DNA of 32,000 bases. It comes from Nitrosarchaeum sp. Its GTDB lineage: Archaea > Thermoproteota > Nitrososphaeria > Nitrososphaerales > Nitrosopumilaceae. This document shows positions 15,067 through 30,018 of this stretch, piece after piece. The position numbers were made by a program, and so were the translations under genes. The stretch spans positions 536,391-568,390 of the forward strand of contig JAILWJ010000001.1 of assembly GCA_025699025.1 (NCBI GenBank), written 5' to 3'. The notes under the pieces are model-generated. The model worked only from the letters and a program-made list of their open reading frames with translations. It ran no database searches and was not told the DNA's origin. The stretch's first letter is position 1, and each line of letters opens with the position of its first letter.

Positions 15067-15645
15067 TCACACATCCAGAAAATCCTTTGGGAGCAATCCT
15101 CCAAGGTTGCCAACTATTGAAGGGTAGATGTTCTCAAAATCCTTGTCATCGCAAATTACTTTGAAGACATGAAAGATCAGCTGCTGGATTTCCAGGTGCT
15201 CGTCTCGGTACAATGTCTTTTTTGGATTCTTTGTAGAATCCAACAAAGTAAACCCGGTATCTGTCTGGAGCAGGTTTCTAAGAAGTAAATTGGATATGTG
15301 TATTTTTTCATCTGCATCCTTGTGATGGTAATCTGCTGCAAACCGTCGGATAAAGTTCTTCAGGTTATGAAACGATGTGTTGGTCACCTGCTCAAAGTGG
15401 ACAAGCGTCTTTGATTCATAGTTGGGAGTAGGGGCGTAAAACTTCATGTTCCCGTCAACGTTTACTGTGATCAGGTTCTTTTCGACAAGCGAGTCGCGCG
15501 TTTTTTCAAACGTTGTTTTTGCCATGAATTTGGGAACAATCATCTTTACCAGCGCGTTATGGTGCAGATTTGGGTTGTTTCGGATGTGCTCCATCACAGT
15601 CCTTTCACGCCTGATGATCTCTGAATTGGGCTCGTATTGACTCAT
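15067..15645 (-). CDS. Putative winged-helix DNA-binding protein
   Basis: 192 aa. The N-terminus VMEHIRNNPNLHHNALVKMIVPKFMAKTTFEKTRDSLVEKNLITVN looks like a wHTH. Architecture resembles 8038-8604. Confidence 0.5.
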   Translation of the reverse strand: MSQYEPNSEIIRRERTVMEHIRNNPNLHHNALVKMIVPKFMAKTTFEKTRDSLVEKNLITVNVDGNMKFYAPTPNYESKTLVHFEQVTNTSFHNLKNFIRRFAADYHHKDADEKIHISNLLLRNLLQTDTGFTLLDSTKNPKKTLYRDEHLEIQQLIFHVFKVICDDKDFENIYPSIVGNLGGLLPKDFLDV

Positions 15646-15813
15646 GTTATCTAGGTCGACCTATAGTTAGTGGGTCAAATATATAAAACTTGAAAACAAC
15701 ATGTTTGATATCTGGATGGAAAAAATGGACACAAGGTATGGTTTTAACAATTTTCGCATTTTGTATAAACTTGTAGCCTAATCGGATAATGAATCAACAA
15801 TCAGACTGGAACC

Positions 15814-15939
15814 ATGGATGATTTGGCGTGCGAGCACTATTGGGCTCCAAACGGATCTTACTATTGCATTCACTGTGGCATGGACATTAGCAAAAAGCCG
15901 GACTTTTACGCAATGCAGGACAGAGCCAGCCTAGGCTAA
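15814..15939 (+). CDS. Possible 41-aa Cys/His mini-protein
   Basis: ATG-initiated ORF below the 60-aa track cutoff: MDDLACEHYWAPNGSYYCIHCGMDISKKPDFYAMQDRASLG. It has a C.H ... C..C arrangement. Confidence 0.25.
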   Translation: MDDLACEHYWAPNGSYYCIHCGMDISKKPDFYAMQDRASLG

Positions 15940-16030
15940 GACCGATGTGTAAATTTATTCACATCAGTTGATCAAAAAATTCATGTAAAGATCTTTTAGT
16001 TTTTTAAATAGAGTTCAGAGCGAGAGGGAA

Positions 16031-16195
16031 TTGTCACACACATGCATTGGATGCGGAATTGAACTAGAGGGAAATGAAAAGTTTTGCTCCAGTCAATGCC
16101 AGGACCACCACTTGAAAAGACTCAAAGAGATTATGGTAAATAGCGTTAGAAACGACTCTAACCATACAAACAGCCTGGCACAATATACCGTATAA
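16031..16195 (+). CDS. Possible 54-aa Zn-ribbon protein (C..CG ... FCS..C type)
   Basis: A TTG start would be required. The peptide SHTCIGCGIELEGNEKFCSSQCQDHHLKRLKE resembles the small archaeal Zn-ribbon family with the FCS..C signature. Confidence 0.3.
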   Translation: MSHTCIGCGIELEGNEKFCSSQCQDHHLKRLKEIMVNSVRNDSNHTNSLAQYTV

Positions 16196-16278
16196 GCAGA
16201 TATTCTGGCATCCGCCAAGATAGGAGGACACCACATTTTGTGTTTACAAAATGACGTACACGATGTTATGATGTGATA

Positions 16279-16725
16279 TCATAGCAGGTTCTTGCTAAAG
16301 GACAGACCTGACTGCTCAAATCCAAGGGACTTGTAAAACTTGTGGGACTCGGTTCTTTGGTTGCCTGATTCCAGACGTATTCTGTAGCAGTTGTTGTTTT
16401 TGCCAAGTTCTATGCAGCTGCTGACCAGCTTTTTGCCAATCCCGGAATACCTGAAATCCTTTTTTACCACCAGCTCGGGGATGTACATCTCAAACTTTGC
16501 GTGGTTGAGTCTTCGAATAAAGATGACGCTGACCAGTCCGACTATGATGGAGTCATGCTCTGCCACAAGGAGCCGCTTTGATGGGTCTACAAAATAGTCC
16601 CTGACCTTGTTTTCAAATATCTTCAGATCATCGTCATCAATTGGCTTTGGTCTGTCCAGCTCGTAGAGTAGCTCCAGGATTTCCCGGATGTCGTTTTCGG
16701 TGGCGTTTCTGATTGATGGTTCCAC
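16279..16725 (-). CDS. GNAT-family N-acetyltransferase
   Basis: 148 aa. Acetyl-CoA motif A is present: LVVKKDFRYSGIGKKLV (R..G.G). The C-terminal HKFYKSLGF block is typical of GNATs. Confidence 0.85.
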   Translation of the reverse strand: MEPSIRNATENDIREILELLYELDRPKPIDDDDLKIFENKVRDYFVDPSKRLLVAEHDSIIVGLVSVIFIRRLNHAKFEMYIPELVVKKDFRYSGIGKKLVSSCIELGKNNNCYRIRLESGNQRTESHKFYKSLGFEQSGLSFSKNLL

Positions 16726-17130
16726 GTGTTTTCATACGCTTTAGAATTTTTAAGGAATTCTAAAGCATAAATTGAAAAAACAGATAGAATGGATAATTCA
16801 TCTAATTACGAACTAGGTGTTATGGGCGAATACAGACGGGATAAAACAATCGAGTAAATTTCTCACAAACACGCATTTCGTGTTTTGATAACTTGAGATG
16901 TATGAAATTCTTTTCTTGACAAACATCAGATAAACAAGATATTTAGAATTTCTAATGATAATATCAGTCTTCACCGACTGACAGTTGTTTCTTTGAGATA
17001 GAATCGGCTTTTTGTATGCTAAACCACTCTTTTATACTAGAATGACGTATACAAGATAGGTTTTGTTGTTAGTATGATGTATGATCAAAAGAAAAAATAT
17101 GAGAAATCCTGGGTTTCGGTAAAACAATAA

Positions 17131-17712
17131 ATGAATTTAACACGTGGTTTTCTTGTTCTGACAGTTTCTGCATTATTCATGATGAGTTTTGGTTCGTATG
17201 TGTTTGCTCAAGAAGTTACAATTCAGAAACCACCACTAAGTTTAGGCGGCAACCACTTTGGTTCAATGATAAAGACCCAAACAGTTTCATCTGATGGCTC
17301 TATCTGGATATTTCTTACCACCACAGAACCTGTAGAAAGAGAACACATGACAATCAATGTAAGATTTACCGATGAGAATGGCAAACAGGTCAACGGTATC
17401 AACTATGACATCATAGCAACTCAGAATGAACAGATTATTTTGTCAGAAACAATGGTTCATCAGCGCATAGGCATTGGAGATCACCTCACACAAGCATTGC
17501 CAAGCGATGATGCAGTTAACGTAAAGATCACACTACAAGGCATAGGGACAAATCCTCCATTCACAGGACCGCAAGGGGAATCCATCCAGATTATTGCAGT
17601 TCCTGAATTTGGAACAGTTGCAATGATCATCCTCGGCATATCCATTTTGAGCATAGTGATGATCAGCAAAAAGGGCACCCTGTCATTTCTAAGCCAGAAA
17701 TATACGGTCTGA
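17131..17712 (+). CDS. Secreted protein with PEFG-CTERM archaeal sorting signal
   Basis: 193 aa. Signal peptide (LVLTVSALFMMSFGSYVFAQE). The C-terminal AVPEFGTVAMIILGISILSIVMISKKG gives PEFG, a TM helix and a basic patch. Confidence 0.75.
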   Translation: MNLTRGFLVLTVSALFMMSFGSYVFAQEVTIQKPPLSLGGNHFGSMIKTQTVSSDGSIWIFLTTTEPVEREHMTINVRFTDENGKQVNGINYDIIATQNEQIILSETMVHQRIGIGDHLTQALPSDDAVNVKITLQGIGTNPPFTGPQGESIQIIAVPEFGTVAMIILGISILSIVMISKKGTLSFLSQKYTV

Positions 17713-17935
17713 TCAGCACAATAGGAAATTGGTTCATGTTCTTAAGACCCAGTAATTTTGAGAATTTTATGTGATCTTGGGTCTATTTGGATTTTTAGAT
17801 CATATTTCTGAGCATCAAGGTTTTGCCTTGAAATTCTTTGCTACATAGTGGAACTTGTCTGTGTTTTTTTGATGCGAGATAAACTGTTGATCCATAGTAC
17901 CTTAGATCATAGGAAAGAAAATCGATTAATTTTTC

Positions 17936-18619
17936 TTATATCCTAATAAAGAAAAACAACACAGTTCCTGCCAGCACACCAAAGGTTATTGCTTTTAAAA
18001 CATACTCTTTCTTTTTAGCCTGCAACACATTTGAACTCTGCATAAAGTGCTTGTACTTTCTTGAAGTAATAACTAGCAAATAGGTAATAATGCCAGATAT
18101 TGCTGAGAGAAGCAACGTTTCTAGTGATATTGAATTTGACTGAATCGCAGATCCAGCAAAAACGGGCAGCATTCCCCACGAAAATACTGTTGATGCATTA
18201 TTATGAAATTTTCCTCCAAACAATTCCATATTATATGCAAAAAGAAAAAACCCCTCGGCGATCCCAATTGGAATTAATAATAGAGAATCAAGTACAGCAT
18301 AAAAAATTCCAATGCTAAATGATATCCCAAGTGCAGTCAACGCAATAATGACTAGTTTTCTTTTTGGGAGTTCGCCCCAAGGTTTTGTTTTTCCACAAAC
18401 TGCATCAAGAAGATGCGCAGACACACCCACTGCAAGAAAGTAAATTATGGCAATGGCGACGGTTCTTTCTATTGCAAACCCATCTATCAGCGAGCCCCAA
18501 ATTGCAAAACACATCACAATGCCAGTATAAGGCAAAAACAAAATCCCCACACTGGTTTTAAATTTTCTTGAACCAAACTTTGGCACAAACCATTCCCCAG
18601 TTCTGTCTTTTTGCACCAT
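17936..18619 (-). CDS. Polytopic membrane protein (hypothetical)
   Basis: 227 aa with about 6-7 hydrophobic segments. No family recognised. Confidence 0.55.
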   Translation of the reverse strand: MVQKDRTGEWFVPKFGSRKFKTSVGILFLPYTGIVMCFAIWGSLIDGFAIERTVAIAIIYFLAVGVSAHLLDAVCGKTKPWGELPKRKLVIIALTALGISFSIGIFYAVLDSLLLIPIGIAEGFFLFAYNMELFGGKFHNNASTVFSWGMLPVFAGSAIQSNSISLETLLLSAISGIITYLLVITSRKYKHFMQSSNVLQAKKKEYVLKAITFGVLAGTVLFFFIRI

Positions 18620-18686
18620 ATCAATTGGAGTTTATCGCTTATATCCTTCAGTTGTGGATTCAAAGCGGCATATTTTATAGTAAAAA

Positions 18687-19097
18687 ATGCCAACCCAAAC
18701 TATGGGCGTGTATAAAAAATTTATAAAAAAAGGCGTCAGCGAACCTTTAGAAAAAATCAGTTTTCATAAAAAGGCACCCATAAAGCGTCTATTGATGCTT
18801 GATAACAAACTAATTCCAGAATCTGATACCCACATAGCGGTTCATTTTGTAAGCGCAAATGGGAAAAAGATTTCCGAGTACAGTGAGTCGCACAAGCATG
18901 ATGCAGATGAGATTAACCTGATCTTGTCTGAAAACGGCAAATTAGCATATGAAATTCAACTTGAAGATGAAATTTACAAAGTTTCTTCGCCATCTACGGT
19001 GTTCATACCCAAAGGAGTCAGGCATCGGGCAAGAGTCTTGTCAGGTAGTGGGATCTTTGTATGCATAATTCTGTCAAGCAAGTACAAATCATCATGA
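18687..19097 (+). CDS. Cupin-fold protein (putative)
   Basis: 136 aa. The block SPSTVFIPKGVRHRARVLSGSGIFVCI resembles cupin motif 2 (P.G..H). Weak evidence. Confidence 0.45.
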   Translation: MPTQTMGVYKKFIKKGVSEPLEKISFHKKAPIKRLLMLDNKLIPESDTHIAVHFVSANGKKISEYSESHKHDADEINLILSENGKLAYEIQLEDEIYKVSSPSTVFIPKGVRHRARVLSGSGIFVCIILSSKYKSS

Positions 19098-19292
19098 AAT
19101 TAGCTTGATTGAAAACACTGTCAACTCACCCTTGTTTGAGGATAGAACTGCCAGTTTTGCCAATAACCTCCGTTTCTTCTTAATATCTCCAAACTGATGT
19201 GTTTTTTGTCTAGTTTGTCCAGAGTCACAATTGCCATAAAGCAAAGTCACCAATTAAACTACAAAAATATACTCCAATTGCCCGATTATACC

Positions 19293-19916
19293 ATGGATGA
19301 AAAAATTGCAACTGTTTTGGACAGATTGGAAAAGCAGGAAAAATACGAGCTTGATAATCATGACAAGGTCCCGCATCAAGAAAGAATGCTTGCAATTACT
19401 CCAAGCATAGGAAAGTTTTACAATATTTTACTACGTGCTGCCAAGGCAACCTCGGTATTGGAGATTGGGACATCTGTAGGATATTCTACAATTTGGTTTG
19501 CAGATGCCCTAAGAGAATCATTGAGTTCAAGCATCACGACAATCGAGGTTGATCAAAATAAAATAAAGCAGGCAAGAAAAAACTTTGCAGATTCCGGGGT
19601 GGATGATATCATAGAAATACGGCAGGGTGACGCATTGGATGTATTAAATAAGATTTATCAGGAAGCAGATCATAAATCAATTTTTGATTTTGTCTTCATT
19701 GATGCAGACAAGGAGAGATATCGAGAGTATTTTGATTTAAGTTTTAAGCTAGTTAAAGTGGGTGGAATAATCGCTGCCGATAACATTTTGAAGCCAGAAA
19801 GATTTGGAGATATGATGAGAGACTATCAGGAGCATGTCAGAAAAAATACAAAAATTCTTTCAGTAACAGTGCCAATTGATAATGGCGAAGAAATTTCATT
19901 CAAACTTGATGACTAG
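19293..19916 (+). CDS. Class I SAM-dependent O-methyltransferase (family 3, caffeoyl-CoA OMT-like)
   Basis: An ATG at 19293 is preferred over the upstream start. SAM motif VLEIGTSVGYST is present. Later blocks are ITTIEVD, FDFVFIDADKERYREYFDL and VKVGGIIAADNIL. Confidence 0.8.
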   Translation: MDEKIATVLDRLEKQEKYELDNHDKVPHQERMLAITPSIGKFYNILLRAAKATSVLEIGTSVGYSTIWFADALRESLSSSITTIEVDQNKIKQARKNFADSGVDDIIEIRQGDALDVLNKIYQEADHKSIFDFVFIDADKERYREYFDLSFKLVKVGGIIAADNILKPERFGDMMRDYQEHVRKNTKILSVTVPIDNGEEISFKLDD

Positions 19917-19924
19917 TTGCTTTG

Positions 19925-20026
19925 ATCTATTGTTTTAAAATAGTAGGCTGCCACTTATTTGTAGATGGTTTGTGTCTGATTTTCTCCATGCGTGTATGTT
20001 TTTGACACGGAAACGACATAATTCAT
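19925..20026 (-). pseudogene. Truncated homologue of the casposon Zn-ribbon basic protein (intact copy at 25050-25316)
   Basis: Minus-strand translation MNYVVSVSKTYTHGENQTQTIYK* compares with MKYVVSVSKTYTHRGNHRHKSTT in the intact gene. There is a premature stop at 19955-19957. Residual nucleotide similarity continues to about 19938. Confidence 0.7.
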
Positions 20027-20204
20027 GATACTATGCTACTGCAAACTAATAAGAACAGATTATGATGTTATTTTTTGTCTGGAAATGGCTTGCATAAAAC
20101 CACATAGATGGATCTATTGATTCAATGAGAGGTTGATAGAATACCAAAATATTGATGTGAGGAGAAGTTTATGGAGAAATTTCATGCCTGCGTAATTATT
20201 ATAT

Positions 20205-20705
20205 GTGTTTCCAGTGAAACTACTTTCTACGTTAAACAGACTCAAAAGGCACAAAATTGAGTGAGATGTTGTGGCTTTTGCTACTGACTCTGTATGCACT
20301 ACCAGAAAGGTAGCAAGTAGCTCAAATGAGCTAGGTCAGTTTAGTTTGGACAAGTCAGGAGATGACGTATTTTTCTTGCAAAACGGCATTTACCGGGTAA
20401 ACGGTAAATGGAAACAGAGAGGTTTGGGACATTTGGGAACAAAAGAGATTGAGCATCTTGATACCGTGGAAAAAGATGGAAAACTGTATTACAAGTTTAA
20501 GGTGTTACGTGCAGGGCAGTTGCGCTCTTCAATTATTCAAAATGACATTGATAATATCGGCAAGTTCTCAGAGATGACCAGACAGATTGATCTTAATGCG
20601 GATAAAAAGAGAACATGGCTGGGTCAGATCAAAACTGTCGATTGTAAAACAATAAATGATTCGATACCCATATCATTGAATCACATTAATAAAGAAAATC
20701 TCTAA
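20205..20705 (+). pseudogene. Family-B DNA polymerase fragment (C-terminal part, internally deleted, in-frame stop)
   Basis: 20265-20705 encodes VVAFATDSVCTT...GDDVFFLQNGIYRVNGKWKQRGLGHLGTKEIEHL...SLNHINKENL. By eye this is roughly 60 percent identical to residues about 449-594 of the intact PolB. 20205-20250 (VFPVKLLSTLNRLK) resembles PolB residues about 332-347. A stop lies at 20262-20264, and about 100 codons plus the whole N-terminal half are missing. Confidence 0.85.
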
Positions 20706-21022
20706 ATGATTTGTTTCTTCTTTAATTCGCTTATTACGGCTTCAGTTATTTCAGACGTCAATTGTTCAAGTTTATCTTTATATTGCATCATCACATTGTC
20801 AATTACTTCTTGGATTTTTTCTTGAGATTCTATCTTTTGTTGTGTATTTGTTTCGATGGCTCTGGCTATCGGTTCTATTTGATTTCTAACTTCTGAGAAT
20901 GCATCACGTACTGAATAATACACTTTATCAGAAACACCTCCTAGCTGCTCCTCTAAGTCTTGTTTCATTTTTTTCATTTTCTCTTCAATTTGATTAGAGA
21001 TATTTTCACCAGATGAATTCAT
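20702..21022 (-). CDS. Hypothetical coiled-coil protein (cargo of the decayed element)
   Basis: 106 aa E/K/Q-rich ORF between the PolB pseudogene and the terminal repeat. It has no counterpart in the intact element. Confidence 0.4.
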   Translation of the reverse strand: MNSSGENISNQIEEKMKKMKQDLEEQLGGVSDKVYYSVRDAFSEVRNQIEPIARAIETNTQQKIESQEKIQEVIDNVMMQYKDKLEQLTSEITEAVISELKKKQII

Positions 21023-21154
21023 CTATAAATAATTGAATTTGAACTAAATAAATATGATGATTCCAAATAAAATTACGTCAGAATTTTAGTTAGTATCACA
21101 CAGTTTTACTATTTTATGATCTTAAAGTCTTACGACAACTGTCATAATTTTATT

Positions 21155-21174
21155 CGTAAAAGGGGGGCGTTGCC
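21155..21174. repeat. Right terminal repeat of the decayed element (variant TIR with G6 tract)
   Basis: cgtaaaaggggggcgttgcc sits directly before the direct repeat. The intact right end reads cgaaatggggggattctatt. The G6 run lies 12 vs 11 nt from the shared ACTCTCTG core. Confidence 0.6.
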
Positions 21175-21195
21175 TTTTTACTCTCTGTCGATAAA
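21175..21195. repeat. Direct repeat, middle copy (target-site duplication; orphan copy of the aEF-2 3' end)
   Basis: tttttactctctgtcgataaa is identical 21/21 to 29998-30018. Its reverse complement encodes FIDRE-stop. Because of the A/T runs at the junctions, the true TSD is between about 13 and 21 bp. Confidence 0.9.
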
Positions 21196-21218
21196 AATAG
21201 AATCCCCCCATTTCGTGC
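21196..21218. repeat. Left terminal inverted repeat (perfect core)
   Basis: aatagaatccccccatttcgtgc is the exact reverse complement of 29977-29999. Imperfect similarity (blocks tgct, tttt, ggacta) continues to about 21250 vs 29945. Confidence 0.9.
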
Positions 21219-21312
21219 CTGAGTTTGTGCTAGTTTTGGTAATGGACTAGAACATAACGAAGATTATGATTTGTTGGAGAATAGTTATAACGAAATTACA
21301 AATCGATAATGT

Positions 21313-21561
21313 ATGTCTGATGATTATGACTTTCAAAAGAAATTAGCAAAGTATCAGTTAAAGGCTACTGCGATTTCGATTTTTGGAAGTACAATAATTG
21401 CATTAGGAATTGCTTTGGCTTCGATTTCTGTAACTATTGAAAATCAAGGAATGTCAATTTTAATTCTCACAATAGGAATAATGCTAATTCTATCCTCGTT
21501 ACTTATAGTTGTGATAAACTTGTGGCGAATCAGTAAACACATAGATAGAATCAACAAATGA
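21313..21561 (+). CDS. Small two-helix membrane protein, translationally coupled to cas1
   Basis: 82 aa with two hydrophobic helices. The stop overlaps the Cas1 start (ATGA at 21558-21561). Confidence 0.55.
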   Translation: MSDDYDFQKKLAKYQLKATAISIFGSTIIALGIALASISVTIENQGMSILILTIGIMLILSSLLIVVINLWRISKHIDRINK

Positions 21562-22562
21562 CCATTAAAGGAAAACAAAACCATTACAACGTAAAGTTTC
21601 TCAAAGGATACGGTCATTCAATTTCTGTAAAAGACTCCAGAATAATTCTAAAATCCAATCATGACCCATTCTCAGAGCCTGAGATTGAATCATGGTATGT
21701 CAAAAATATGCCATACGAAAAGATAATCCTTTCAGGTAAAGGCTACGTCTCAACTGAGGCATTATCAATACTATCTCAGAACAACCGTAACGTCATATTA
21801 TTAGACAATCACGGAAAACCTGTAACTTTCATGAATGGCATGATGGATTCACTCACTACAACAAAATATCGCATGGCTCAATATGATACATTTCGAGATG
21901 AATCAAAGTGTGAGTATTTGCGTCAGCAAATCATACAAAGTAAGAAAGAATCACAATTGAAACTTCTCAAATTAATTGGAAGTGATGTTACTGAACTGCC
22001 AGATTCAGAACACCTTTCTGCCAAAGTCTACTGGTCTGAATTCGCTAAATTCATTCCTGAAAAATATCAGTTCCATTCCAGAAATCAGAGTTTCATCAGA
22101 ACTAGCAAAAATAATGCAACTGATGTAATCAATGCTTTATTGAATTATGGTTATTCCGTTTTAGCTGGAGAAATCTCAAAATTTGTTTGTGGAATGGGAT
22201 TAGACCCATACTTTGGATTCATGCACAAATCTCATACGGGTTTTCAACCGTTGGTCTATGATATCATAGAGCCGTTTAGGTGGTTGGTCGATTATTCTGT
22301 GTATCAAATAGCAAACAATGGCAGTGACAGGCAGAAAATAAAACTAAAAGAGTACAGTTACACAAAAGATGGAACTGTGGTTATGGAATATTCTCTGATC
22401 AAGAGGTTTTTGGAAATGCTGGAAAGACAATTTCAAAAGGAGAGAAAATATGATTTTAGACATGGGAAGAAGACAAAGGATGGTTTGAAATCTGTACAGG
22501 AAATTACGATTGTAAAGACCATGATTCAGAATTTAGTAGAGTTTTGTCAAAAACATGTTTAG
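21558..22562 (+). CDS. cas1: Cas1-family integrase (casposase), stand-alone
   Basis: 334 aa. Cas1 signature blocks are NALLNYGYSVLAGE (E205, nt 22170), GLDPYFGFMHKS (H223, nt 22224) and PLVYDIIEPFRWLVD (D235/E238, nt 22260). These supply the conserved E-H-D metal-binding triad. The N-terminal beta-rich part (ILSGKGYVSTEALSILSQNNRNVILLDNHGKPV) fits the Cas1 N-domain. Confidence 0.9.
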   Translation: MTIKGKQNHYNVKFLKGYGHSISVKDSRIILKSNHDPFSEPEIESWYVKNMPYEKIILSGKGYVSTEALSILSQNNRNVILLDNHGKPVTFMNGMMDSLTTTKYRMAQYDTFRDESKCEYLRQQIIQSKKESQLKLLKLIGSDVTELPDSEHLSAKVYWSEFAKFIPEKYQFHSRNQSFIRTSKNNATDVINALLNYGYSVLAGEISKFVCGMGLDPYFGFMHKSHTGFQPLVYDIIEPFRWLVDYSVYQIANNGSDRQKIKLKEYSYTKDGTVVMEYSLIKRFLEMLERQFQKERKYDFRHGKKTKDGLKSVQEITIVKTMIQNLVEFCQKHV

Positions 22563-22589
22563 TACATTTCCAGTTTGATTTATAATAAT

Positions 22590-23300
22590 TCATTGCTCAA
22601 ATGACGGGATATTTTGGATGATAATTATCTCATTTGCTTTGACTATTGATTCAAGCATATCGTGTACGTCTTCAACTAGATTAAGATAATTATCCCATGT
22701 ATCAAAGGACATGTTTTTTCCATCAATAAAGTCAAACTGTTTATTTTTGTAATGTATTGTTGTGTTTCCCGGATTATCTGGAAGATATACTCCATTATTA
22801 TGAAACGAATTTCTGTAAAGTCTTAGAATATCTAACAATTTTTCATATTCATTTGAATCTAATGTGATATGTCTTGGACTTAACAACCAACTATACATAT
22901 TTTTGAAACTTCTCTTTGTATTTTCATATGCTGTATGATCCATAGATTTCACTATGGCTCTGAATGAGCTTTCTATCATTGAAAATAAAAAGAACACCAA
23001 ACTGAAACGAAGTGTTTTGTTAAAAGATTCTAATGTTTCATCAATTATGATTTTTGTTTCATTATTTGTAATGTCTCCAAATTGTTTCCACCAATCTTTT
23101 TGTTGTGCATGGTCTCTAGTTAAAACTGCACCCAATTCGGTTGAACGCAATACATTTTTGCATTTTATAAAAATTGCCAATCTTGCATCAGTTTTTTTCC
23201 AATTTGGATTTTGTTGTTGTAATGAAAAATATGTATCACAATATTTGTTTTTAATTTTTTCAAGTCTAATAGTTACAGATTTCCATTTTATGTCAGTCAT
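22590..23300 (-). CDS. Hypothetical cargo protein (possible HEPN/Abi-like helical domain)
   Basis: 236 aa. The block LLDILRLYRNSFHNNG resembles the R(N)xxxH helix of HEPN/Abi proteins, but the spacing is non-canonical. Confidence 0.5.
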   Translation of the reverse strand: MTDIKWKSVTIRLEKIKNKYCDTYFSLQQQNPNWKKTDARLAIFIKCKNVLRSTELGAVLTRDHAQQKDWWKQFGDITNNETKIIIDETLESFNKTLRFSLVFFLFSMIESSFRAIVKSMDHTAYENTKRSFKNMYSWLLSPRHITLDSNEYEKLLDILRLYRNSFHNNGVYLPDNPGNTTIHYKNKQFDFIDGKNMSFDTWDNYLNLVEDVHDMLESIVKANEIIIIQNIPSFEQ

Positions 23301-23312
23301 ACAAAAATGAAA

Positions 23313-23340
23313 ATTTATATGAACTTAAGCATATTGATTA
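23313..23340 (-). promoter_or_regulatory. Repeated promoter-like block, copy 1 (upstream of 22590-23300)
   Basis: atttatatgaacttaagcatattgatta. On the minus strand it reads ...caatatgcttaagttcatataaat, with a TATA-like box about 15-25 nt before the ATG. Confidence 0.45.
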
Positions 23341-23354
23341 GAACCGAATATGTT

Positions 23355-23699
23355 CTACTGAGGAACAAATTGGAGAAGTAAAAGATATCCTACAATCCAA
23401 CTAATACCGTAAATCAACAATCCTACTATCCAATGACCAAAAATTCGTATTGGAGCAAATATGGATACAAGAAAAGCTATTATAGATATCGCAATTAACC
23501 AGTTTCTCATCACATCACAATTGTACTGAGTTTGTTCATTATCCAATAATTCCAATTCACAGAATTCATCTAGGACAAAATTTGCAATAGCATATTGATT
23601 TGTGGGCACTTCAAATGTGGTTGAAATTCCAAATAGAATTCCTGCAATAAACCCTGCTTTAAAAACAAGAATACCTGTTGCAATTACACCTTTTGCCAT
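23355..23699 (-). CDS. Small membrane protein (cargo)
   Basis: 114 aa with 3-4 hydrophobic segments. Confidence 0.5.
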   Translation of the reverse strand: MAKGVIATGILVFKAGFIAGILFGISTTFEVPTNQYAIANFVLDEFCELELLDNEQTQYNCDVMRNWLIAISIIAFLVSIFAPIRIFGHWIVGLLIYGISWIVGYLLLLQFVPQ

Positions 23700-23707
23700 A
23701 ACATTAC

Positions 23708-23740
23708 AAATTTTTGTATGAACTTAAGCATATTGCACAT
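23708..23740 (-). promoter_or_regulatory. Repeated promoter-like block, copy 2 (upstream of 23355-23699)
   Basis: aaatttttgtatgaacttaagcatattgcacat. The core tatgaacttaagcatattg (23717-23735) is identical to 23318-23336. Confidence 0.45.
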
Positions 23741-23863
23741 CAAGATTAAATACAAATTTTGCAATCATACCCATGCTCGAAGAAGCAATCCAAGAGTTCA
23801 TGGCATTTGTAGGCAGGTTCTGTCTGGATAATCTGCCATATCTTACATGCAGTTCATAAAATT

Positions 23864-24076
23864 CTATTTTTTCTTTTTTTGAATCTTTGGTTTTGCTAAA
23901 ACCTTACCAAGAAAAAGCGATCCAAATATGATTGGAAGTATTCCAAAACCCCAAAATTCGTATGCTGTAAGTGGGTTTACATCTTCATACGAAACTAGAA
24001 TATTTGCAATTACGATTAATCCAATACACACTAAACCAAAGTTAATACAAATCGAGATAATTTTAGAGAGTTTCAT
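23864..24076 (-). CDS. Small two-helix membrane protein (cargo)
   Basis: 70 aa with two hydrophobic helices and a KPKIQKKKK tail. Confidence 0.45.
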   Translation of the reverse strand: MKLSKIISICINFGLVCIGLIVIANILVSYEDVNPLTAYEFWGFGILPIIFGSLFLGKVLAKPKIQKKKK

Positions 24077-24099
24077 TCTTACTCATTAAATAACATATA

Positions 24100-24128
24100 A
24101 AATTTGTTTATGAACTTAAACCTGTTGG
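24100..24128 (-). promoter_or_regulatory. Repeated promoter-like block, copy 3 (divergent region 24077-24162)
   Basis: aaaatttgtttatgaacttaaacctgttgg. This is a degenerate version of the same block (tatgaacttaaacctgttg). Confidence 0.4.
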
Positions 24129-24162
24129 AAAATGAAATAAATCAGTATTCAGTGGTTTGATT

Positions 24163-25053
24163 ATGAAATGGATTTTTTTGTTAATTGCATTTGGTTTTTT
24201 CAGTCCTGTATATGCAGAAGAATCTACGTTAAATGACATCCAAACACAATTAGATAATCAGATAAATCAGCAAAATCTAAAGAAATTAGAACAAAGAGTT
24301 TCAAATCTAGAAAACCAATCATCATTTGAAGACCAGTTTGTTTCAAGCGAAGAATATACTAAATTAATGAGTCGATTACATATTTTAGAAAATAATGATC
24401 AATTGAAAAATGAACTGATTTCTTTGAAAACCGTTCTTGATACAGAACTATCAGAAATGAATAGTTCAATGACAATTGCACAAAAAACTGCCACTGATTC
24501 ATTTTTGTTAGGAATTTACATTTCGATTGGGTTTGCAGGAATCGCAATAGGAGCTACAATGCTGTATTCTAGAAAAATGGAAATACAAACAGAATTGATA
24601 AAAACAGACATCAAAACACGGATTAGACCAATTTTAAGCAGAAAAGAATTAGAAAAAAAAGTTAGGAATTCAAATGAACAATTAGTAAAACATGTATTCA
24701 CTCTAACTCGACATAAAGCATTATTTCATTTTCAAAACACTGGAACATTGCCAGCCGTAAACATTTCACGAAATTATTATGCAGAGATCAGAGAAACACC
24801 ATCAGATGTAATCAAATTGAATCCTAAAGAATATGTTGATGTGATTAAAATGGCAACCTTAGCTCCAAATGAATATTATAGTACAGATGTTTTTTGGTTA
24901 GACCCATGTTTTGATAATGCCGTTGATAGAAATAATTGCTATTTTGGATTAGTTATTTGGTATCACGATTCCAAAGGGACAAGATATTATTATCATATCG
25001 AAGGATTTTTTGATCATGGGGAATTGATGATAACTCATGTTGATATGAATTAA
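24163..25053 (+). CDS. Membrane-anchored coiled-coil protein (cargo, hypothetical)
   Basis: An ATG at 24163 is preferred over the TTG at 24157. Signal/anchor MKWIFLLIAFGFFSPVYA, then a Q/N/E-rich coiled coil, a central TM (FLLGIYISIGFAGIAIGATMLY) and a C-terminal globular part. Confidence 0.55.
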   Translation: MKWIFLLIAFGFFSPVYAEESTLNDIQTQLDNQINQQNLKKLEQRVSNLENQSSFEDQFVSSEEYTKLMSRLHILENNDQLKNELISLKTVLDTELSEMNSSMTIAQKTATDSFLLGIYISIGFAGIAIGATMLYSRKMEIQTELIKTDIKTRIRPILSRKELEKKVRNSNEQLVKHVFTLTRHKALFHFQNTGTLPAVNISRNYYAEIRETPSDVIKLNPKEYVDVIKMATLAPNEYYSTDVFWLDPCFDNAVDRNNCYFGLVIWYHDSKGTRYYYHIEGFFDHGELMITHVDMN

Positions 25054-25316
25054 AATTCACAATACGGACATTCTAATTCTTCTTTACTAGATTTCACAAA
25101 TCCCAAAAACGCATTTCCACAATCAGTACAAAAATACTTTAATCGTTTTCTCTTCTGAGCCTTGTAGTACAATGCCTGCAACCAACTAACTCTCTGAGTT
25201 CTAAAATTTCCATCTTCATCATAGTAATAGATATGCCATCTCTTCTTAGTTGTTGATTTGTGCCTGTGATTTCCACGATGTGTGTAAGTTTTTGACACTG
25301 AAACAACATACTTCAT
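25050..25316 (-). CDS. Basic Zn-ribbon protein conserved in both casposon copies
   Basis: 88 aa, rich in K/R/H/Y. C-terminal CTDC ... CPYC Zn ribbon. The N-terminus and upstream region are homologous to 19938-20065. Confidence 0.6.
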   Translation of the reverse strand: MKYVVSVSKTYTHRGNHRHKSTTKKRWHIYYYDEDGNFRTQRVSWLQALYYKAQKRKRLKYFCTDCGNAFLGFVKSSKEELECPYCEF

Positions 25317-25327
25317 GATACCTCAAT

Positions 25328-25358
25328 GCTACTTCAAACTAATAAGAACAGATTATGA
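25328..25358 (-). promoter_or_regulatory. Highly conserved non-coding block upstream of the Zn-ribbon gene
   Basis: gctacttcaaactaataagaacagattatga matches 20035-20065 (gctactgcaaactaataagaacagattatga) at 30 of 31 positions. This is far above the similarity of the flanking coding DNA. On the minus strand, cttattag lies about 25-30 nt before the ATG (TATA-like). Confidence 0.45.
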
Positions 25359-25916
25359 CTATTCTAAATTCTCAATCGTGCCTTTACTTAACAAAGAATC
25401 AGGAGCATGAACAAAAGGAACTTGTTTTTTTGAACCAGTATTTTTTGTAAACTTTGCAATTGATTGCATCAACAAAAGTGTATCACGTAGCTGTTCCCGT
25501 ATGTGCCATTTGAATTCTTCTGGCATTAGCTTCATCAGACCTTCTAATCCAATGTTAAAGAAATTATAATACATGATAAATGAGAATATTTTGTCAGGAT
25601 CCTCGTCAGATTGTTTTTGATCAGCAATTGATGAAGCATATTTTAAAGTGGTCATAAAATCTTCAAAACTTCTACTTGATAGAATTTTTGCTTTGTAGGA
25701 ATTAGGCAAGGGTGAAAAGGCATAATGAAAATCTGAAAATGACTGTTCGATCTTTGATTGAATTTCTCGATAAAACCTATATTTGTTTGAAATTGGAAAA
25801 ACTTCTGGATTCCAAAGATTAGCATATTCGTCATGACTAATCAAAGTTAGTTTTGGATTTGTCTTTTTTATTTCATTCATAATCTTTTCTTGCTTTGCAG
25901 TTTGTCTTTTTTTCAT
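25359..25916 (-). CDS. Hypothetical protein (cargo)
   Basis: 185 aa ORF. No family recognised. Confidence 0.5.
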   Translation of the reverse strand: MKKRQTAKQEKIMNEIKKTNPKLTLISHDEYANLWNPEVFPISNKYRFYREIQSKIEQSFSDFHYAFSPLPNSYKAKILSSRSFEDFMTTLKYASSIADQKQSDEDPDKIFSFIMYYNFFNIGLEGLMKLMPEEFKWHIREQLRDTLLLMQSIAKFTKNTGSKKQVPFVHAPDSLLSKGTIENLE

Positions 25917-25950
25917 TATTATTATTCTATTTTAGACAAATTTAAGCATA

Positions 25951-26199
25951 ATGTTCGTATATACAGTAATGAAGTCAAAAACAAACCAAAAACAAAGAGC
26001 AGACGAGCCAATCGAGACAGACTTTGGCAACAGGCAGGTATCCCACCAGAATTTTTCAAGAATTGTGGCACTGCCTAAAATTGCTCTGCAAAACTGTGGG
26101 ATAACGTCACAGGTATCTGTGAAACTAGTCCTGCAAAACGGAGAAAAATTTCTCAAAATTACTCCGGCAAAAACAAAAGGAGGTGAACATACTGAGTGA
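25951..26199 (+). CDS. Putative AbrB/SpoVT-like DNA-binding protein
   Basis: 82 aa (alternative start at 25969). SRIVALPKIALQNCGITSQVSVKLVLQNGEKFLKITP fits the looped-hinge-helix pattern (v.iPk.i...lgi..g..v.....g..i.i.P). It is the first gene of the plus-strand block that ends with PolB. Confidence 0.4.
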   Translation: MFVYTVMKSKTNQKQRADEPIETDFGNRQVSHQNFSRIVALPKIALQNCGITSQVSVKLVLQNGEKFLKITPAKTKGGEHTE

Positions 26200-26527
26200 A
26201 ACTACCTATCCTCCATTTTTGAAATGGGGAGAATATGCCTCTGATGATCCAGAAAATCCAGATGTACTAGAACTCAAGGTTGCAGATACTGAGACATTTG
26301 AGACGGAATTTTCAATCAATGTAATGGCATTGATCAAGGAAAAGAAATCATGGATAGAATACAACATCCCACTGAAGAGCCACGAATCAAAGAATTCATC
26401 ACTGCTAAACCAGTGGAACAGATTCTCAAAGAATCTCAAGAAAGGAGACAGACTAGTTCTAAAGACGTGGCTTGGAACATCAAAGAACTCTAGGAAGATC
26501 AGGAGGTACAGTCTAGAGAAACTCTAG
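26183..26527 (+). CDS. Hypothetical protein (replication-module neighbour)
   Basis: 114 aa with a GTG start preceded by aaaggagg. No family recognised. Confidence 0.45.
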   Translation: MNILSETTYPPFLKWGEYASDDPENPDVLELKVADTETFETEFSINVMALIKEKKSWIEYNIPLKSHESKNSSLLNQWNRFSKNLKKGDRLVLKTWLGTSKNSRKIRRYSLEKL

Positions 26528-26530
26528 ACA

Positions 26531-26545
26531 TTTTTTTCTTTTTTT
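26531..26545 (+). terminator. Oligo-T tract (archaeal-type terminator candidate)
   Basis: tttttttcttttttt lies immediately after the stop at 26525-26527. Confidence 0.35.
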
Positions 26546-26555
26546 GGTGATTGTG

Positions 26556-26873
26556 ATGATGGAGGATAAAGACAAGCTTGTAAAACAATTGGATGCCCTA
26601 AAGATTTTTCCAAACAACAGACTAGTAAGAGATCTAAAGAATCAGATTAAAAATAAATTAAAAAAATTAGAAACTGTAAAACCTGCAAAACCAAAGAGAG
26701 ACCCAAACGTCTCACGGTCAAGCAAGCTCAAGAGATATCACAACTACATGAGACAGATAAGAAACAACTTTCCAAATTTATCATACAGCCAGATAAGAAA
26801 ACAGTTCTCAAAAAGAAAGCGTGGCGATGACGTATCCATCCCTGATGCAGTATGGCAGAACCCATCCCCGTAA
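26556..26873 (+). CDS. Small highly basic protein overlapping the PolB start (DNA-binding or terminal-protein candidate)
   Basis: About 105 aa from the ATG at 26556. KPAKPKRDPNVSRSSKLKRYHNYMRQIRNNFPNLSYSQIRKQFSKRKRG is loosely HMG-box-like (PKR...aromatic...P.LS). It overlaps the polB start by 22 nt in another frame. Confidence 0.5.
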   Translation: MMEDKDKLVKQLDALKIFPNNRLVRDLKNQIKNKLKKLETVKPAKPKRDPNVSRSSKLKRYHNYMRQIRNNFPNLSYSQIRKQFSKRKRGDDVSIPDAVWQNPSP

Positions 26874-28636
26874 CTGACTGCAAGAGCCTCAGGCGAGTCT
26901 TTACAAAAAAGCCTCAGAACAGAGACCCTGCAAAGTCGCACAAGAGAAAAGTCTATGCAATAGACACCGAGACGTATCAAGGAAACATCTTTCTGATTGC
27001 AGATTCAGACGGCAGATTCTTGGATAAGATCACGCCTGAATCGTGCCTAGACTGGCTATTTTGCAGGAAATACGAGGGAAATTGGTGCTTTTTTTACAAT
27101 CTTGGCTATGATGCAGAAGTCATACTCAAACTATTGGGTTCGGAACTATTCAGGTATAGAAACACTGGCAAGCTCAAATTTTCATTTCAAAAATATACCA
27201 TAGAGTATCATCCAAACAAGTGCCTCAAAATCTCAAAGGGTCACCACTCTGTGATATTTTACGATGTAGCACAGTTTTATCATGCAAGTCTGGCAGATGC
27301 ATATCAGAACAACATCAAGAAATTACCAAAGAAATATCTGGAAACAAAATCCAAGAGAAACCAGTTCTCTGTAACATACTACAAGAGAAACACAAGGCAG
27401 GTAAGAGACTATTGCATACAGGATTGCAAGCTGACAAAAGAACTAGCCATCCACTGGATCAAACTATTTCATGACGCATTTGGGTTCTATCCTGCAAGAT
27501 GGGTTAGTTCAGGATACTTGGCTGAAAAAGTCTTGATCAACAACAACATAGAGTTTCCAAAGTTTGATGATACGCCATATGAGGTGCAGGAGATGGCATT
27601 TGCCTCATACTATGGGGGAAGATTTGAGATTACAAAGCGTGGATATATTGGGACTGCATACAAGTATGACATAAACTCTGCATATCCATACTCTCTGACA
27701 AAAATTCCAGACCTGACAAAAGGAAGATGGATTAAGAGAAAGTCAATCCACCCAAAAGCAGAATTGGGTTTTTTCAGAATTATCGCAGACGTTCCAGACT
27801 GCAAGTACATTCCTCCATTTCCGTTTCGTACCAATGGACTCATTATTTTTCCCAGTGGGAAATTTGAGACATACGTTACATTAGATGAACTCAAAGTTGC
27901 AGACAAGAGATACTACAAAATTCTAGATTCCTACCAGTTCATTCCAGATGGAAAAATAACGTATCCTTTCAAAAAATTTGTAGAGTCAATGTATGAGAAA
28001 AGATTACAATTAAAGAAAGAGGGCAATCCGTTGCAACTGCCAATCAAGATAATACTGAATTCCATATATGGCAAGACTGGTCAGAAAACAAACAGAATAA
28101 TGGGAAATCTGTTCAATCCCGTGATATTTGGTACCATTACAGGCATGACCCGTGCGTATCTCTATGACTTTGTCATGAAAAATGCCATAGAAAACCAAGT
28201 GGTGTTTTTTGCAACAGATTCAGTATGCACTACTGTTCCACTGGATGTTGATTCAGACAGACTGGGAGAGTTTTCTTTGGAAGAAAAGGCAGACGATGTA
28301 TTTGTGTTGCAGAACGGATTCTATCGGTTTAATGGCAAATGGAAGCAGAGAGGTATTGGCAAACTAGGCAGTAAAGAGATCGAACATCTTGAGACATTTG
28401 AGAGAAATGGAAAGTTGTACTATCGATTCAAGGTTTTGAGAAACTCTAGGTTGAGATCATCAATATTGCAGGATTCAATATCTCAGATTGGTAGGATTAG
28501 AGAGCATGTTAGGGAGGTTAATTTGAACGCAGATAGGAAAAGGTTATGGTTAAATCAACTAGACAACATTAATTCAAAAAAATATTTAGATTCATTTCCA
28601 CTTTCTTTAAACCATTTAAACAAAAAGAACATTTGA
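26852..28636 (+). CDS. polB: Family-B DNA polymerase (compact, protein-primed-like type)
   Basis: 594 aa. ExoI YAIDTET (D38/E40), ExoII FFYNLGYDAEVIL, ExoIII YCIQDCKLT. Pol motif A YDINSAYPY (D273, nt 27668), motif B KIILNSIYGKTGQ, motif C FFATDSV (D456, nt 28217). Confidence 0.9.
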   Translation: MAEPIPVTDCKSLRRVFTKKPQNRDPAKSHKRKVYAIDTETYQGNIFLIADSDGRFLDKITPESCLDWLFCRKYEGNWCFFYNLGYDAEVILKLLGSELFRYRNTGKLKFSFQKYTIEYHPNKCLKISKGHHSVIFYDVAQFYHASLADAYQNNIKKLPKKYLETKSKRNQFSVTYYKRNTRQVRDYCIQDCKLTKELAIHWIKLFHDAFGFYPARWVSSGYLAEKVLINNNIEFPKFDDTPYEVQEMAFASYYGGRFEITKRGYIGTAYKYDINSAYPYSLTKIPDLTKGRWIKRKSIHPKAELGFFRIIADVPDCKYIPPFPFRTNGLIIFPSGKFETYVTLDELKVADKRYYKILDSYQFIPDGKITYPFKKFVESMYEKRLQLKKEGNPLQLPIKIILNSIYGKTGQKTNRIMGNLFNPVIFGTITGMTRAYLYDFVMKNAIENQVVFFATDSVCTTVPLDVDSDRLGEFSLEEKADDVFVLQNGFYRFNGKWKQRGIGKLGSKEIEHLETFERNGKLYYRFKVLRNSRLRSSILQDSISQIGRIREHVREVNLNADRKRLWLNQLDNINSKKYLDSFPLSLNHLNKKNI

Positions 28637-28642
28637 ATTATT

Positions 28643-29923
28643 ATGATTTTAACATTAGAAAACTGCGCACATTATTTAGATGCAATAGAAAACTTTGTTG
28701 ATTCTGAATGGTTAAAAATACAAACTGATAAAATAATTGAGTATTATAATACAGTAAACAATACAAGCATTTTAGGAAAATTAGAAGATTATTCAAATCC
28801 ATTGGCATTGTTAATTTATCAAGCAGACAAAACATTATCTCGATTAACAGATGATAAACACGCGCATTCATCTGTTGAATTAATTAAAGCAGTTTCATTA
28901 GGAATGTATTTGGAAAAATTAACTGAAGCAAATCTTGATTTTAAAGATAAATTAACTGATTTGACATCCTCGGATAAAAAATCATTTGAAAAAATAATTT
29001 TTGAGTTAGACATAGCAACTGCATTTTTGAATTCAGGACATTCTGTTGAATTTATCAAAACAGACTCCACACACAATAATCGTACTGCTGATTTACGAAT
29101 AGACGGAACAATAGAAGTAGAATGTAAGAAAAAAGATAAACTCACTAAATTCGACATTCAAAACCAAGATCGATGGAACACATTAAATCGTAAACTCCGA
29201 GCATTTTTTAATGAACAAAAAAAATATCCATTCATCTATATTTTTGTAAAAAATGATCTTTCTCATGAAATTATTCAGAAAATTCTAAAACAAATTAGAA
29301 AAATGACGCATAACAATGAAACCGCATATTCAGATTCAGAAATAAAAATCATGATTGAAGAGTTGTGTAAAAATGACGAAATCATGTCATTAGGATTTCA
29401 AGCAAGAAATAGTGATGAGTTGATGGGAAGAATCAATCCCAAAATAATTGACACCATAATAAAATCCAAGATAAAATACACTCATTTGATGGATTATGAA
29501 TTAATACATCCAGATCATTTTTCAGATGATTCAAAAATTCAAATTGTAAATGAGAATGTGTTTGTAAGTGAACTAAGACGTTATGTTTTCAAATCTTTGA
29601 GAAATGTTCATCGAATGAATGGCATTATATCATCAATTAAAAATGCAAGAAACCAACTTTCTGGAGATACATGTGGTATTATTTGTGTGAATTTTACTCA
29701 TTTAACCGATACTATGATAGAACAAGATTACAAAAATTTGACAAGTTTGATAAATCAGTTTCTTAAAAATAATTCAAAAGTTTCAGCAGTTATTGTTTCT
29801 TCAGAATTCTATTCCACTTCTAGAGATATGAGATTTATTCATAAAGCGCTAATAATTCGAAATCCATTGGCACGCCATAAACTCCCAGATAATTTTCAAT
29901 TCCTTAATGATGTTAGCATGTAA
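28643..29923 (+). CDS. Hypothetical 426-aa cargo protein with PD-(D/E)xK-like motif
   Basis: Very AT-rich ORF. IIFELDIATAF...HSVEFIKTD...TADLRIDGTIEVECKKK gives an E ... D(150) ... E(158/160).K(162) arrangement, like restriction-endonuclease-fold nucleases. Confidence 0.55.
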   Translation: MILTLENCAHYLDAIENFVDSEWLKIQTDKIIEYYNTVNNTSILGKLEDYSNPLALLIYQADKTLSRLTDDKHAHSSVELIKAVSLGMYLEKLTEANLDFKDKLTDLTSSDKKSFEKIIFELDIATAFLNSGHSVEFIKTDSTHNNRTADLRIDGTIEVECKKKDKLTKFDIQNQDRWNTLNRKLRAFFNEQKKYPFIYIFVKNDLSHEIIQKILKQIRKMTHNNETAYSDSEIKIMIEELCKNDEIMSLGFQARNSDELMGRINPKIIDTIIKSKIKYTHLMDYELIHPDHFSDDSKIQIVNENVFVSELRRYVFKSLRNVHRMNGIISSIKNARNQLSGDTCGIICVNFTHLTDTMIEQDYKNLTSLINQFLKNNSKVSAVIVSSEFYSTSRDMRFIHKALIIRNPLARHKLPDNFQFLNDVSM

Positions 29924-29976
29924 TTTTCATAATATTCGATAATTTTTAGTCCTAACGAAAAACAGCAGTGAGTTAC

Positions 29977-29999
29977 GCACGAAATGGGGGGATTCTATT
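29977..29999. repeat. Right terminal inverted repeat (perfect core)
   Basis: gcacgaaatggggggattctatt is the exact reverse complement of 21196-21218. Confidence 0.9.
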
Positions 30000-30018
30000 T
30001 TTACTCTCTGTCGATAAA
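29998..30018. repeat. Direct repeat, right copy (target-site duplication; functional 3' end of aEF-2)
   Basis: tttttactctctgtcgataaa is identical to 21175-21195. It covers the aEF-2 codons F-I-D-R-E and the stop (30001-30003). Confidence 0.9.

Follow-up and report, generated by a model that had tools for sequence, protein, structure and literature searches.

A probable remnant of a family-1 casposon of separate lineage beside an intact casposon at the aEF-2 gene of Nitrosarchaeum

Family-1 casposons are self-synthesizing transposons that encode Cas1 and a protein-primed PolB (pPolB). We describe here two such elements, one intact and one reduced to a wreck, lying side by side at the 3′ end of the aEF-2 gene in a window of 32,000 nt (positions 536,391–568,390 of contig JAILWJ010000001.1; all coordinates below are counted within the window). 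The source is a metagenome-assembled genome (MAG) of Nitrosarchaeum sp., in which the window lies on a 776-kb contig with locus tags K5785_03xxx.

Among the closest described systems is the pair NitNF5-C1 and NitNF5-C2, two family-1 casposons in tandem in the ef-2 gene of Ca. Nitrosopumilus adriaticus NF5 (Krupovic et al. 2019, PMC6563490). It resembles the present locus in family, in the use of the same ef-2 3′ target and in consisting of two unrelated tandem elements that share a target site duplication (TSD). The difference is that both members of that pair are casposons with genes of their own, whereas here one partner is a 1.2-kb wreck without Cas1, without a left terminal inverted repeat (TIR) and with a truncated PolB, and the host is a Nitrosarchaeum MAG. 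Decayed partners are known from family 2: tandem casposons in Methanosarcina sp. 2.H.T.1A.x, with one copy inactivated, and solo-TIRs in M. mazei (Krupovic et al. 2016, PMC4779613), as well as a remnant adjacent casposon in M. psychrophilus (Krupovic et al. 2014, PMC4046053). There too a preferred site has kept remnants and solo-TIRs, and the family-1 equivalent, TIR footprints, is seen here in 29 of 77 aEF-2 loci. However, the family-2 elements use tRNA or intergenic targets and their tandem partners are closely related copies, while the partners described here are ∼60% identical in PolB and belong to different lineages.

The target itself has been characterised in Ca. Nitrosopumilus koreensis AR1, whose family-1 casposase (element NitAR1-C1) has a 13-bp TSD, ATTGATAAAGAGT, and a minimal TTT leader in vitro; the apparent 22-bp repeat of that element consists of leader, TSD and TIR bases (Wang et al. 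2021, PMC8464041). The 21–22-nt repeat resolves in the same way here, into TTT leader, presumed 13-bp TSD (ATCGACAGAGAGT) and TIR bases. The TIR of our intact element contains the TTCTA motif, as does that of NitAR1-C1; the TIR of the wreck, which is of a different type (type B, ...GGGGGGCGTTGCC), lacks it. A further parallel, drawn in the casposon papers themselves (PMC4046053, PMC4779613), is with Tn7 islands at attTn7 downstream of glmS, where site-specific insertions just past the 3′ end of an essential, conserved gene are repeated, so that arrays form and some of their members decay; the TnsABCD machinery of Tn7 is, however, unrelated to Cas1 casposase and PolB.

We found that the wreck is very probably the right-hand remnant of a family-1 casposon whose lineage is not that of its intact neighbour, the two having been integrated by casposases at the same target and the wreck having decayed afterwards. 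The locus is laid out as follows.

Up to ∼15.65 kb: conserved host genes
15067–15645: g192, a Penicillinase_R-like regulator, conserved host gene
15.7–19.9 kb: non-syntenic genes (4.3 kb)
∼19940–21174: casposon wreck (the probable older element)
21175–21195: middle repeat, 21 nt
21188–30005: intact casposon (the probable newer element)
29998–30018: aEF-2-proximal copy of the repeat, comprising the last five aEF-2 codons and the stop
30001–31962, minus strand: aEF-2 open reading frame (ORF), C-terminus ...NEFIDRE*

The two copies of the repeat, 21175–21195 and 29998–30018, match at 21 of 21 positions. The wreck and the intact casposon occupy one site and are parted by a single copy of the target repeat, as in a tandem array: the TIR of the wreck ends at 21174, the repeat occupies 21175–21195 and the TIR of the intact casposon enters from 21188–21196. 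The middle repeat can be parsed as TTTTT (counted as the last five bases of the wreck's TIR), ACTCTCTGTCGAT and AAA. If leader, TSD and TIR are divided as in the N. koreensis experiments (PMC8464041), ACTCTCTGTCGAT at 21180–21192 is the presumed 13-bp TSD. The AAA matches the TTT leader of aEF-2 on the opposite strand and forms part of the left TIR of the intact casposon. In the orientation of aEF-2 the repeat reads TTT, ATCGACAGAGAGT and AAAAA; the AAAAA makes up the opening five bases of TIRs of type A (that of the intact casposon) and type B alike, and the aEF-2 stop codon TAA is composed of the final T of the presumed TSD and AA from the TIR. The outer few bases at either end of the intact casposon overlap the apparent repeat.

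The wreck is flanked by the target repeat on its right side only, by the copy shared with the intact casposon. A fuzzy search of the whole window, and of 15600–20100 in particular, gave no third copy at ≤6 mismatches. An initial annotation, made by a model from the letters of the window, had placed the old and the new element between three direct repeats, the leftmost of them with a question mark; the middle and the aEF-2-proximal repeats are borne out, and the leftmost was not found in the window. The parts of the wreck are these.

19940–20026, minus strand: 5′ stub of the Zn-ribbon gene, about amino acids 1–32 of ∼90, frameshifted and cut off
20027–20065, minus strand: upstream region of the Zn-ribbon gene, with ATGATAC/ATGCTAC repeats and the 24-nt CAAACTAATAAGAACAGATTATGA
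20066–20234: 169 nt without detectable homology (no blastn, tblastx or profile match)
20235–20705, plus strand: C-terminal remnant of PolB, delimited by profile and alignment, with stop codon at 20703–20705
20702–21022, minus strand: orf106, an intact small coiled-coil-like cargo gene
21129–21174, plus strand: right TIR of type B, 46 nt, outer end ...AAAAGGGGGGCGTTGCC

When the homology blocks were aligned, their order and orientation in the wreck were the same as in the intact casposon, and three of the four features that the initial annotation had listed for the wreck are real, at about the coordinates it gave.

A profile built from 15 full-length family-1 PolBs matches 20235–20693 at positions 440–592 of 592 (E-value 6e-68) and finds no PolB homology in the wreck upstream of 20235. 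The segment 20265–20702 aligns without gaps to residues 449–594 of the intact PolB and shares its stop, with 60.0% amino acid and 59.3% nucleotide identity (58.7% over 155 amino acids by tblastx). The fragment of roughly 60% protein identity noticed earlier at 20265–20705 is thus significantly similar to the PolB C-terminus. A single in-frame TGA lies at 20262–20264, and the remainder of the frame is open to the natural stop. The codons before it, 20235–20261, correspond to profile positions 440–448, so that the PolB homology runs unbroken through the TGA. The further PolB piece that had been placed at 20205–20250, beyond a supposed deletion of ∼100 codons, is rejected in favour of this contiguous homology starting at 20235; tried as an upstream PolB piece, the peptide of 20205–20261 was matched in Smith–Waterman score by 758 of 1000 shuffles. 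Of the 592 profile positions only 440–592 are left, and they are interrupted by the in-frame TGA; this is proof of descent from a family-1 PolB gene, though not of a working polymerase.

At the left end of the wreck, the stub of the Zn-ribbon gene starts at 20026 with MNYVVSVSKTYTH (minus strand; MKYVVSVSKTYTH in the intact gene) and then runs into a frameshift, seen as a 2-nt indel in the DNA alignment. A profile of five Zn-ribbon proteins matches from 20026 to 19940 (E-value 2.5e-4), with a second frame from 19998 to 19945, and the homology ends near 19940–19954. The truncated Zn-ribbon homologue reported at 19925–20026 is accordingly present as a frameshifted 5′ stub; being frameshifted and cut off, it has lost the CxxC motifs. 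At the DNA level, 19954–20065 is 82% identical to 25242–25358 over 112 nt, with a 33-nt core in the upstream region (20033–20065 versus 25326–25358) of 97% identity. The 24-mer CAAACTAATAAGAACAGATTATGA is identical in the wreck and the intact casposon and is common to these two only, and the ATGATAC repeats are kept in four other family-1 casposons (L101, L105, L107 and L108). Across family-1 casposons, the ATGATAC tandem repeats (20027–20065 and 25317–25358 here) and the first 14 codons of the Zn-ribbon gene are conserved; this upstream region may be a regulatory site.

At the right end, the terminal sequence that had been noticed at 21155–21174, abutting the repeat, could be extended to a TIR of 46 nt (21129–21174). 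It lies against a copy of the terminal sequence of aEF-2 that is free of mismatches, which is the arrangement of an element integrated at the 3′ end of aEF-2 that leaves the gene undisrupted. No inverted partner of this TIR, that is, no left TIR, was found in the window (or in 15600–20100) at ≤8 mismatches. Scans of viral contigs gave no match for the type-B TIR or the 24-nt Zn-ribbon upstream motif, and scans for Rfam families, tRNAs and promoters or terminators yielded nothing informative for the region.

Between PolB and the TIR lies orf106, which has no counterpart in the intact casposon; an unrelated ORF of 426 amino acids occupies that position there. A collection of 5.8 billion proteins yielded only two homologues (three by another count), the two lying in contigs L082 and L083, where a block of PolB tail, orf106 and type-B TIR end is 87% identical to the wreck at the nucleotide level. 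Since these homologues carry the same PolB tail and TIR end, we regard orf106 as cargo of the wreck's casposon lineage, and its reading as a host gene was excluded on the same ground. Its dN/dS is 0.35. The block in L082 and L083 abuts the 3′ end of a Pyr_redox_2 gene, not aEF-2.

In the L082 (4950–5500) and L083 (1530–2080) contigs we thus see a casposon remnant adjoining the 3′ terminus of this thioredoxin-reductase-like Pyr_redox_2 gene, with a flank, ACAGAAAATTCCT, that resembles the aEF-2 TSD at its ends only. Judged from these sequences, the 3′ end of the Pyr_redox_2 gene is a second target of the wreck's casposon lineage.

Much of a casposon is missing from the wreck. The 169 nt at 20066–20234 occupy the place of ∼2.8 kb equivalent to 25359–28168 of the intact element, which comprises orf185, three small conserved genes and PolB residues 1–439. 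The initial annotation had noted the absence of homologues of 25359–27845: the block is indeed missing, but its end is at ∼28168. Also missing is the equivalent of 21196–25241, with left TIR, Cas1 and cargo. No Cas1 was found in 15600–20300 with a profile of nine family-1 Cas1 proteins (best independent E-value 6), and tblastx of 19900–21200 against the intact element gave no Cas1 block; profiles of the small conserved genes orf82, orf114 and orf109 likewise had no match in 15600–20300.

The wreck and its neighbour belong to different lineages. Their PolB C-termini are identical at 63, 79 and 36% of first, second and third codon positions, respectively, dS is saturated, dN is 0.34 and 146 codons are still open. 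Given these position identities and the open frame, the divergence built up while both genes were under purifying selection, before the fragment was disabled. The two TIRs are of different types, each of which is present in other genomes. The TIR of the wreck is identical at 45 of 46 positions to the sequence that immediately adjoins aEF-2 in Nitrosopumilus piranensis D3C (CP010868.1); blastn extends this match to 93.5% over 77 nt, with similarity dropping sharply at the inner edge of the TIR. The N. piranensis locus has a PolB stub with 71% amino acid identity to the fragment in the wreck, versus 60% for the intact PolB, and its cargo comprises AAA_15, NYN and HEPN_AbiV genes, with no Cas1. 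Neighbour-joining on the 146 C-terminal residues (a short alignment, without bootstrap) pairs the PolB of the wreck with that of N. piranensis and the intact PolB with a metagenome element, L092, at 77%. The early conclusion that the two elements are not the product of a recent duplication is supported by the saturated dS, the dN of 0.34 and the fact that the PolBs are not each other's closest relatives. The wreck had also been taken for an independent, older insertion of a related element; the separate and diverged lineage is upheld by divergence, TIR types and tree, but the greater age is likely rather than proven.

In N. piranensis (region L081) the PolB stub, at 7852–8429, thus stands next to 6 kb of defence-like cargo, and aEF-2 is met by a TIR of type B. 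This stub is a clear mosaic: over the first 60 codons it shows 90% identity to the intact PolB of our window, and over the last 55 it shows 89% identity to the PolB of the wreck (Fisher p 3e-10). This mosaic and the 24-nt stretch that the wreck shares with its neighbour only are hints of recombination between casposon lineages.

To place the locus among its relatives, aEF-2 sites were surveyed at 80 species-representative loci, chosen from 326 aEF-2 relatives found; 77 loci, all of Nitrosopumilaceae, were informative. In 18 of the 77 a clear TIR start directly follows the aEF-2 stop, either of type A, the type of the intact element (AAATAGAATCCCCCC), or of type B, that of the wreck (AAAGGCAAAGCCCCCC); a degenerate start is present in 11 more (29 of 77 footprints in all) and none in 48. 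Starts related to type B follow the stop in L003, L007, L017, L032 and L061. Eight loci have a truncated Cas1 or a truncated PolB beside aEF-2 and none has both genes; the remnants always keep the aEF-2-proximal end. No intact casposon was found within 10 kb of aEF-2 at the surveyed loci. At 11 loci the site is empty, a homologue of g192 lying 86–311 nt past the aEF-2 stop and TIR-like sequence being present in none; the closest aEF-2 relative (L001, 96% aEF-2 identity) is one with an empty site. Compared with these empty-site genomes, the whole of 15.65–30.0 kb is inserted DNA, and 19.9–21.2 kb is not conserved host DNA. Metagenome contigs add intact-plus-remnant arrays (L118 and L121/L122) and internally deleted elements (L097 and L112). 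The survey and these metagenome remnants together indicate that wrecks are common at the aEF-2 site.

Three kinds of damage can be told apart in the metagenome contigs L097 (9176–10420), L112 (625–1492) and L118 (6454–10654): a Cas1 N-terminus joined straight to a PolB C-terminus by internal deletion, a rearranged Cas1/PolB remnant beside aEF-2, and an intact casposon with several fragments of Cas1 and PolB after it. In L038 an inverted copy of the aEF-2 target with a TIR start (8026–8051) lies ∼1.6 kb downstream of the aEF-2-proximal TIR, in the orientation opposite to that expected of a distal TSD. We also considered whether PolB C-terminal stubs represent a conserved or domesticated gene and rejected it: the many short matches start at varied points and are often lesioned, many stubs lie on very short contigs, and the flanks of orf106 are conserved as much as its coding sequence. 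We found no evidence of exaptation of these stubs.

In the history that we favour, site-specific casposase integration would have placed both elements at the 3′ end of aEF-2, in the 13-bp target after TTT, and integrations in the same orientation would have produced an array sharing one target duplication. The wreck would then have lost, by deletion, its left TIR, Cas1 and everything to the left of about residue 32 of the Zn-ribbon protein, as well as the internal ∼2.8-kb block from orf185 to PolB residue 439, and would have gained one frameshift and one in-frame stop. That casposase made both junctions, and that the TSD is exactly 13 bp, we infer from the structure and by analogy with N. koreensis. 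The wreck was probably inserted first: several lesions are present in it and none in its neighbour, which makes this order the more likely one. The geometry fits either order, as the inner repeat regains its TTT leader from the TIR end. Likewise, the earlier statement that the newer element integrated beside aEF-2 is likely to be right but is not deducible from the geometry, since casposase needs only the TTT leader and the 13-bp TSD.

The reverse order of arrival, in which the intact element came first and a type-B element entered the distal copy of the target and then decayed faster, we consider unlikely. It would lead to the same final geometry; the TTT leader of the distal target would come from the TIR end of the intact element, the in vitro requirement is only for a 3-bp TTT leader and the 13-bp TSD (PMC8464041), and the inner repeat, preceded by ...CTATTTTT, is identical to the aEF-2 copy at 21 of 21 positions. 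Against it stand the at least four inactivating lesions of the wreck, with none in the neighbour, and the expectation, by analogy with leader-proximal spacer insertion, that the gene-proximal copy would be the target, though neither point is decisive. It is improbable that the wreck is instead an ancient, vertically inherited remnant common to N. piranensis and other Nitrosopumilaceae. N. piranensis does carry a PolB stub at this site, together with a TIR that is nearly identical; in either stub an in-frame stop immediately precedes the FATDS motif, the third-position identity of the two stubs (48%) is near that of host aEF-2 (52%), and TIR footprints are widespread among the related loci (29 of 77). 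However, the left breakpoints differ (PolB residue ∼393 and a frameshift in N. piranensis, residue 440 here), the cargo between PolB and TIR is wholly different (orf106 versus the 6 kb with AAA_15, NYN and HEPN_AbiV), and the N. piranensis stub is a mosaic. A non-coding 46-nt TIR that matches at 45 positions is far too alike for neutral co-divergence when aEF-2 third positions are at 52%; the stubs, with 78, 88 and 48% identity at the three codon positions, diverged while functional; and the site is empty in the closest aEF-2 relative.

Duplication in situ, with the casposon copying itself next door and the copy diverging by decay, would account for the same site and orientation and for the Zn-ribbon upstream block of 82–97% identity. 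It is hardly credible given PolBs of 59% nucleotide identity with saturated third versus 79% identical second positions and an open frame, which is divergence under selection, and given that TIR types and cargo differ and each element has closer relatives elsewhere; codon-position divergence and the PolB tree have in effect refuted it. Finally, the contig might join a population carrying the wreck and a population carrying the intact casposon at the 21-nt repeat. The window does come from a MAG, casposons have a known tendency to interrupt or confuse assemblies (PMC4779613), and the related contigs L006, L007 and L032 end right at the TIR. Such an artefact is very improbable, however, in a contig of 776 kb, with a repeat shorter than usual assembly k-mers or overlaps and a structure exactly that of published tandem arrays, which L118 and L121/L122 show independently in the intact-plus-remnant form.

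Several observations weigh against the preferred history of two integrations from different lineages followed by decay of one element. Its junctions rest on metagenome assembly; for the wreck, no third repeat, left TIR or trace of Cas1 was found; the 169 nt at 20066–20234 cannot be assigned; and the 4.3 kb at 15.7–19.9 kb are non-syntenic as well, so that the left boundary of the wreck is soft. The Zn-ribbon region is 82–97% identical between the elements, versus 59% for PolB. This contrast would not be explained by a simple two-element history without recombination or strong constraint.

The segment to the left of the wreck, 15646–19916 (∼4.3 kb), encodes two tiny Zn-ribbon ORFs, a GNAT acetyltransferase, a PEFG-CTERM protein, a membrane protein, a cupin and an O-methyltransferase. 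It is missing from all 80 related loci, save for weak O-methyltransferase paralogues and one GNAT match, and neither a TSD nor a TIR was found at its left edge. It may be a third, older element or cargo; that the O-methyltransferase gene left of the wreck is host flank is not established. A link between orf227 and casposon remnants by way of contigs L131 and L134 was discarded, as the context there looks like ordinary host genes.

The intact casposon carries the full set of family-1 features, namely Cas1, a full-length pPolB, TIRs, a TSD and small conserved genes. Its TIR arms, 21192–21240 and 29955–30003, are 49 nt long and 82% complementary. An exact look-up of its Cas1 sequence gave no record. 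The genes referred to above are as follows.

21558–22562: Cas1 (Pfam Cas_Cas1, E-value 1.6e-42)
25050–25316, minus strand: Zn-ribbon gene
Preceding PolB: three small genes (orf82, orf114 and orf109)
26852–28636: PolB (DNA_pol_B_2, E-value 1.2e-28), full length against the family profile

Homologues of orf82, orf114 and orf109 precede PolB in many metagenome casposons, and three or four small conserved genes directly upstream of PolB are a known feature of family 1 (PMC6563490). A motif of 23–38 nt, TTTATATGAACTTAAGCATATTG, recurs in the intact casposon at 23299–23336, 23698–23735, 24090–24127 and 25931–25953, each time directly upstream of one of four minus-strand genes, and is probably a promoter or 5′ element that these genes have in common, with a TATA-like box.

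The literature already contains family-1 casposons in tandem at ef-2 as well as tandem partners that have decayed, and the arrangement itself is known. What the present locus adds is a clear family-1 case of an intact casposon beside a decayed partner of another lineage, in a genus, Nitrosarchaeum, from which casposon arrays have not been described before; it is also a case of the aEF-2 target being reused by different casposon lineages. The understanding of casposon function is unchanged. Together with the survey, the locus suggests a large excess of wrecks and solo-TIRs over intact casposons at the aEF-2 site in ammonia-oxidising archaea, and such an excess bears on estimates of casposon activity, turnover and recombination. 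More tentatively, and with the odds rather against it, the aEF-2 3′ flank of Nitrosopumilaceae might be a long-lived casposon landing pad and graveyard, where co-resident lineages recombine and tandem arrays make new family-1 mosaics. The hints are the N. piranensis mosaic, the contrast between the Zn-ribbon module (97%) and PolB (59%), the 29 footprints in 77 loci with no intact casposon and the consistently kept aEF-2-proximal ends. If this is true, tandem arrays would give casposon lineages an opportunity to recombine with one another.

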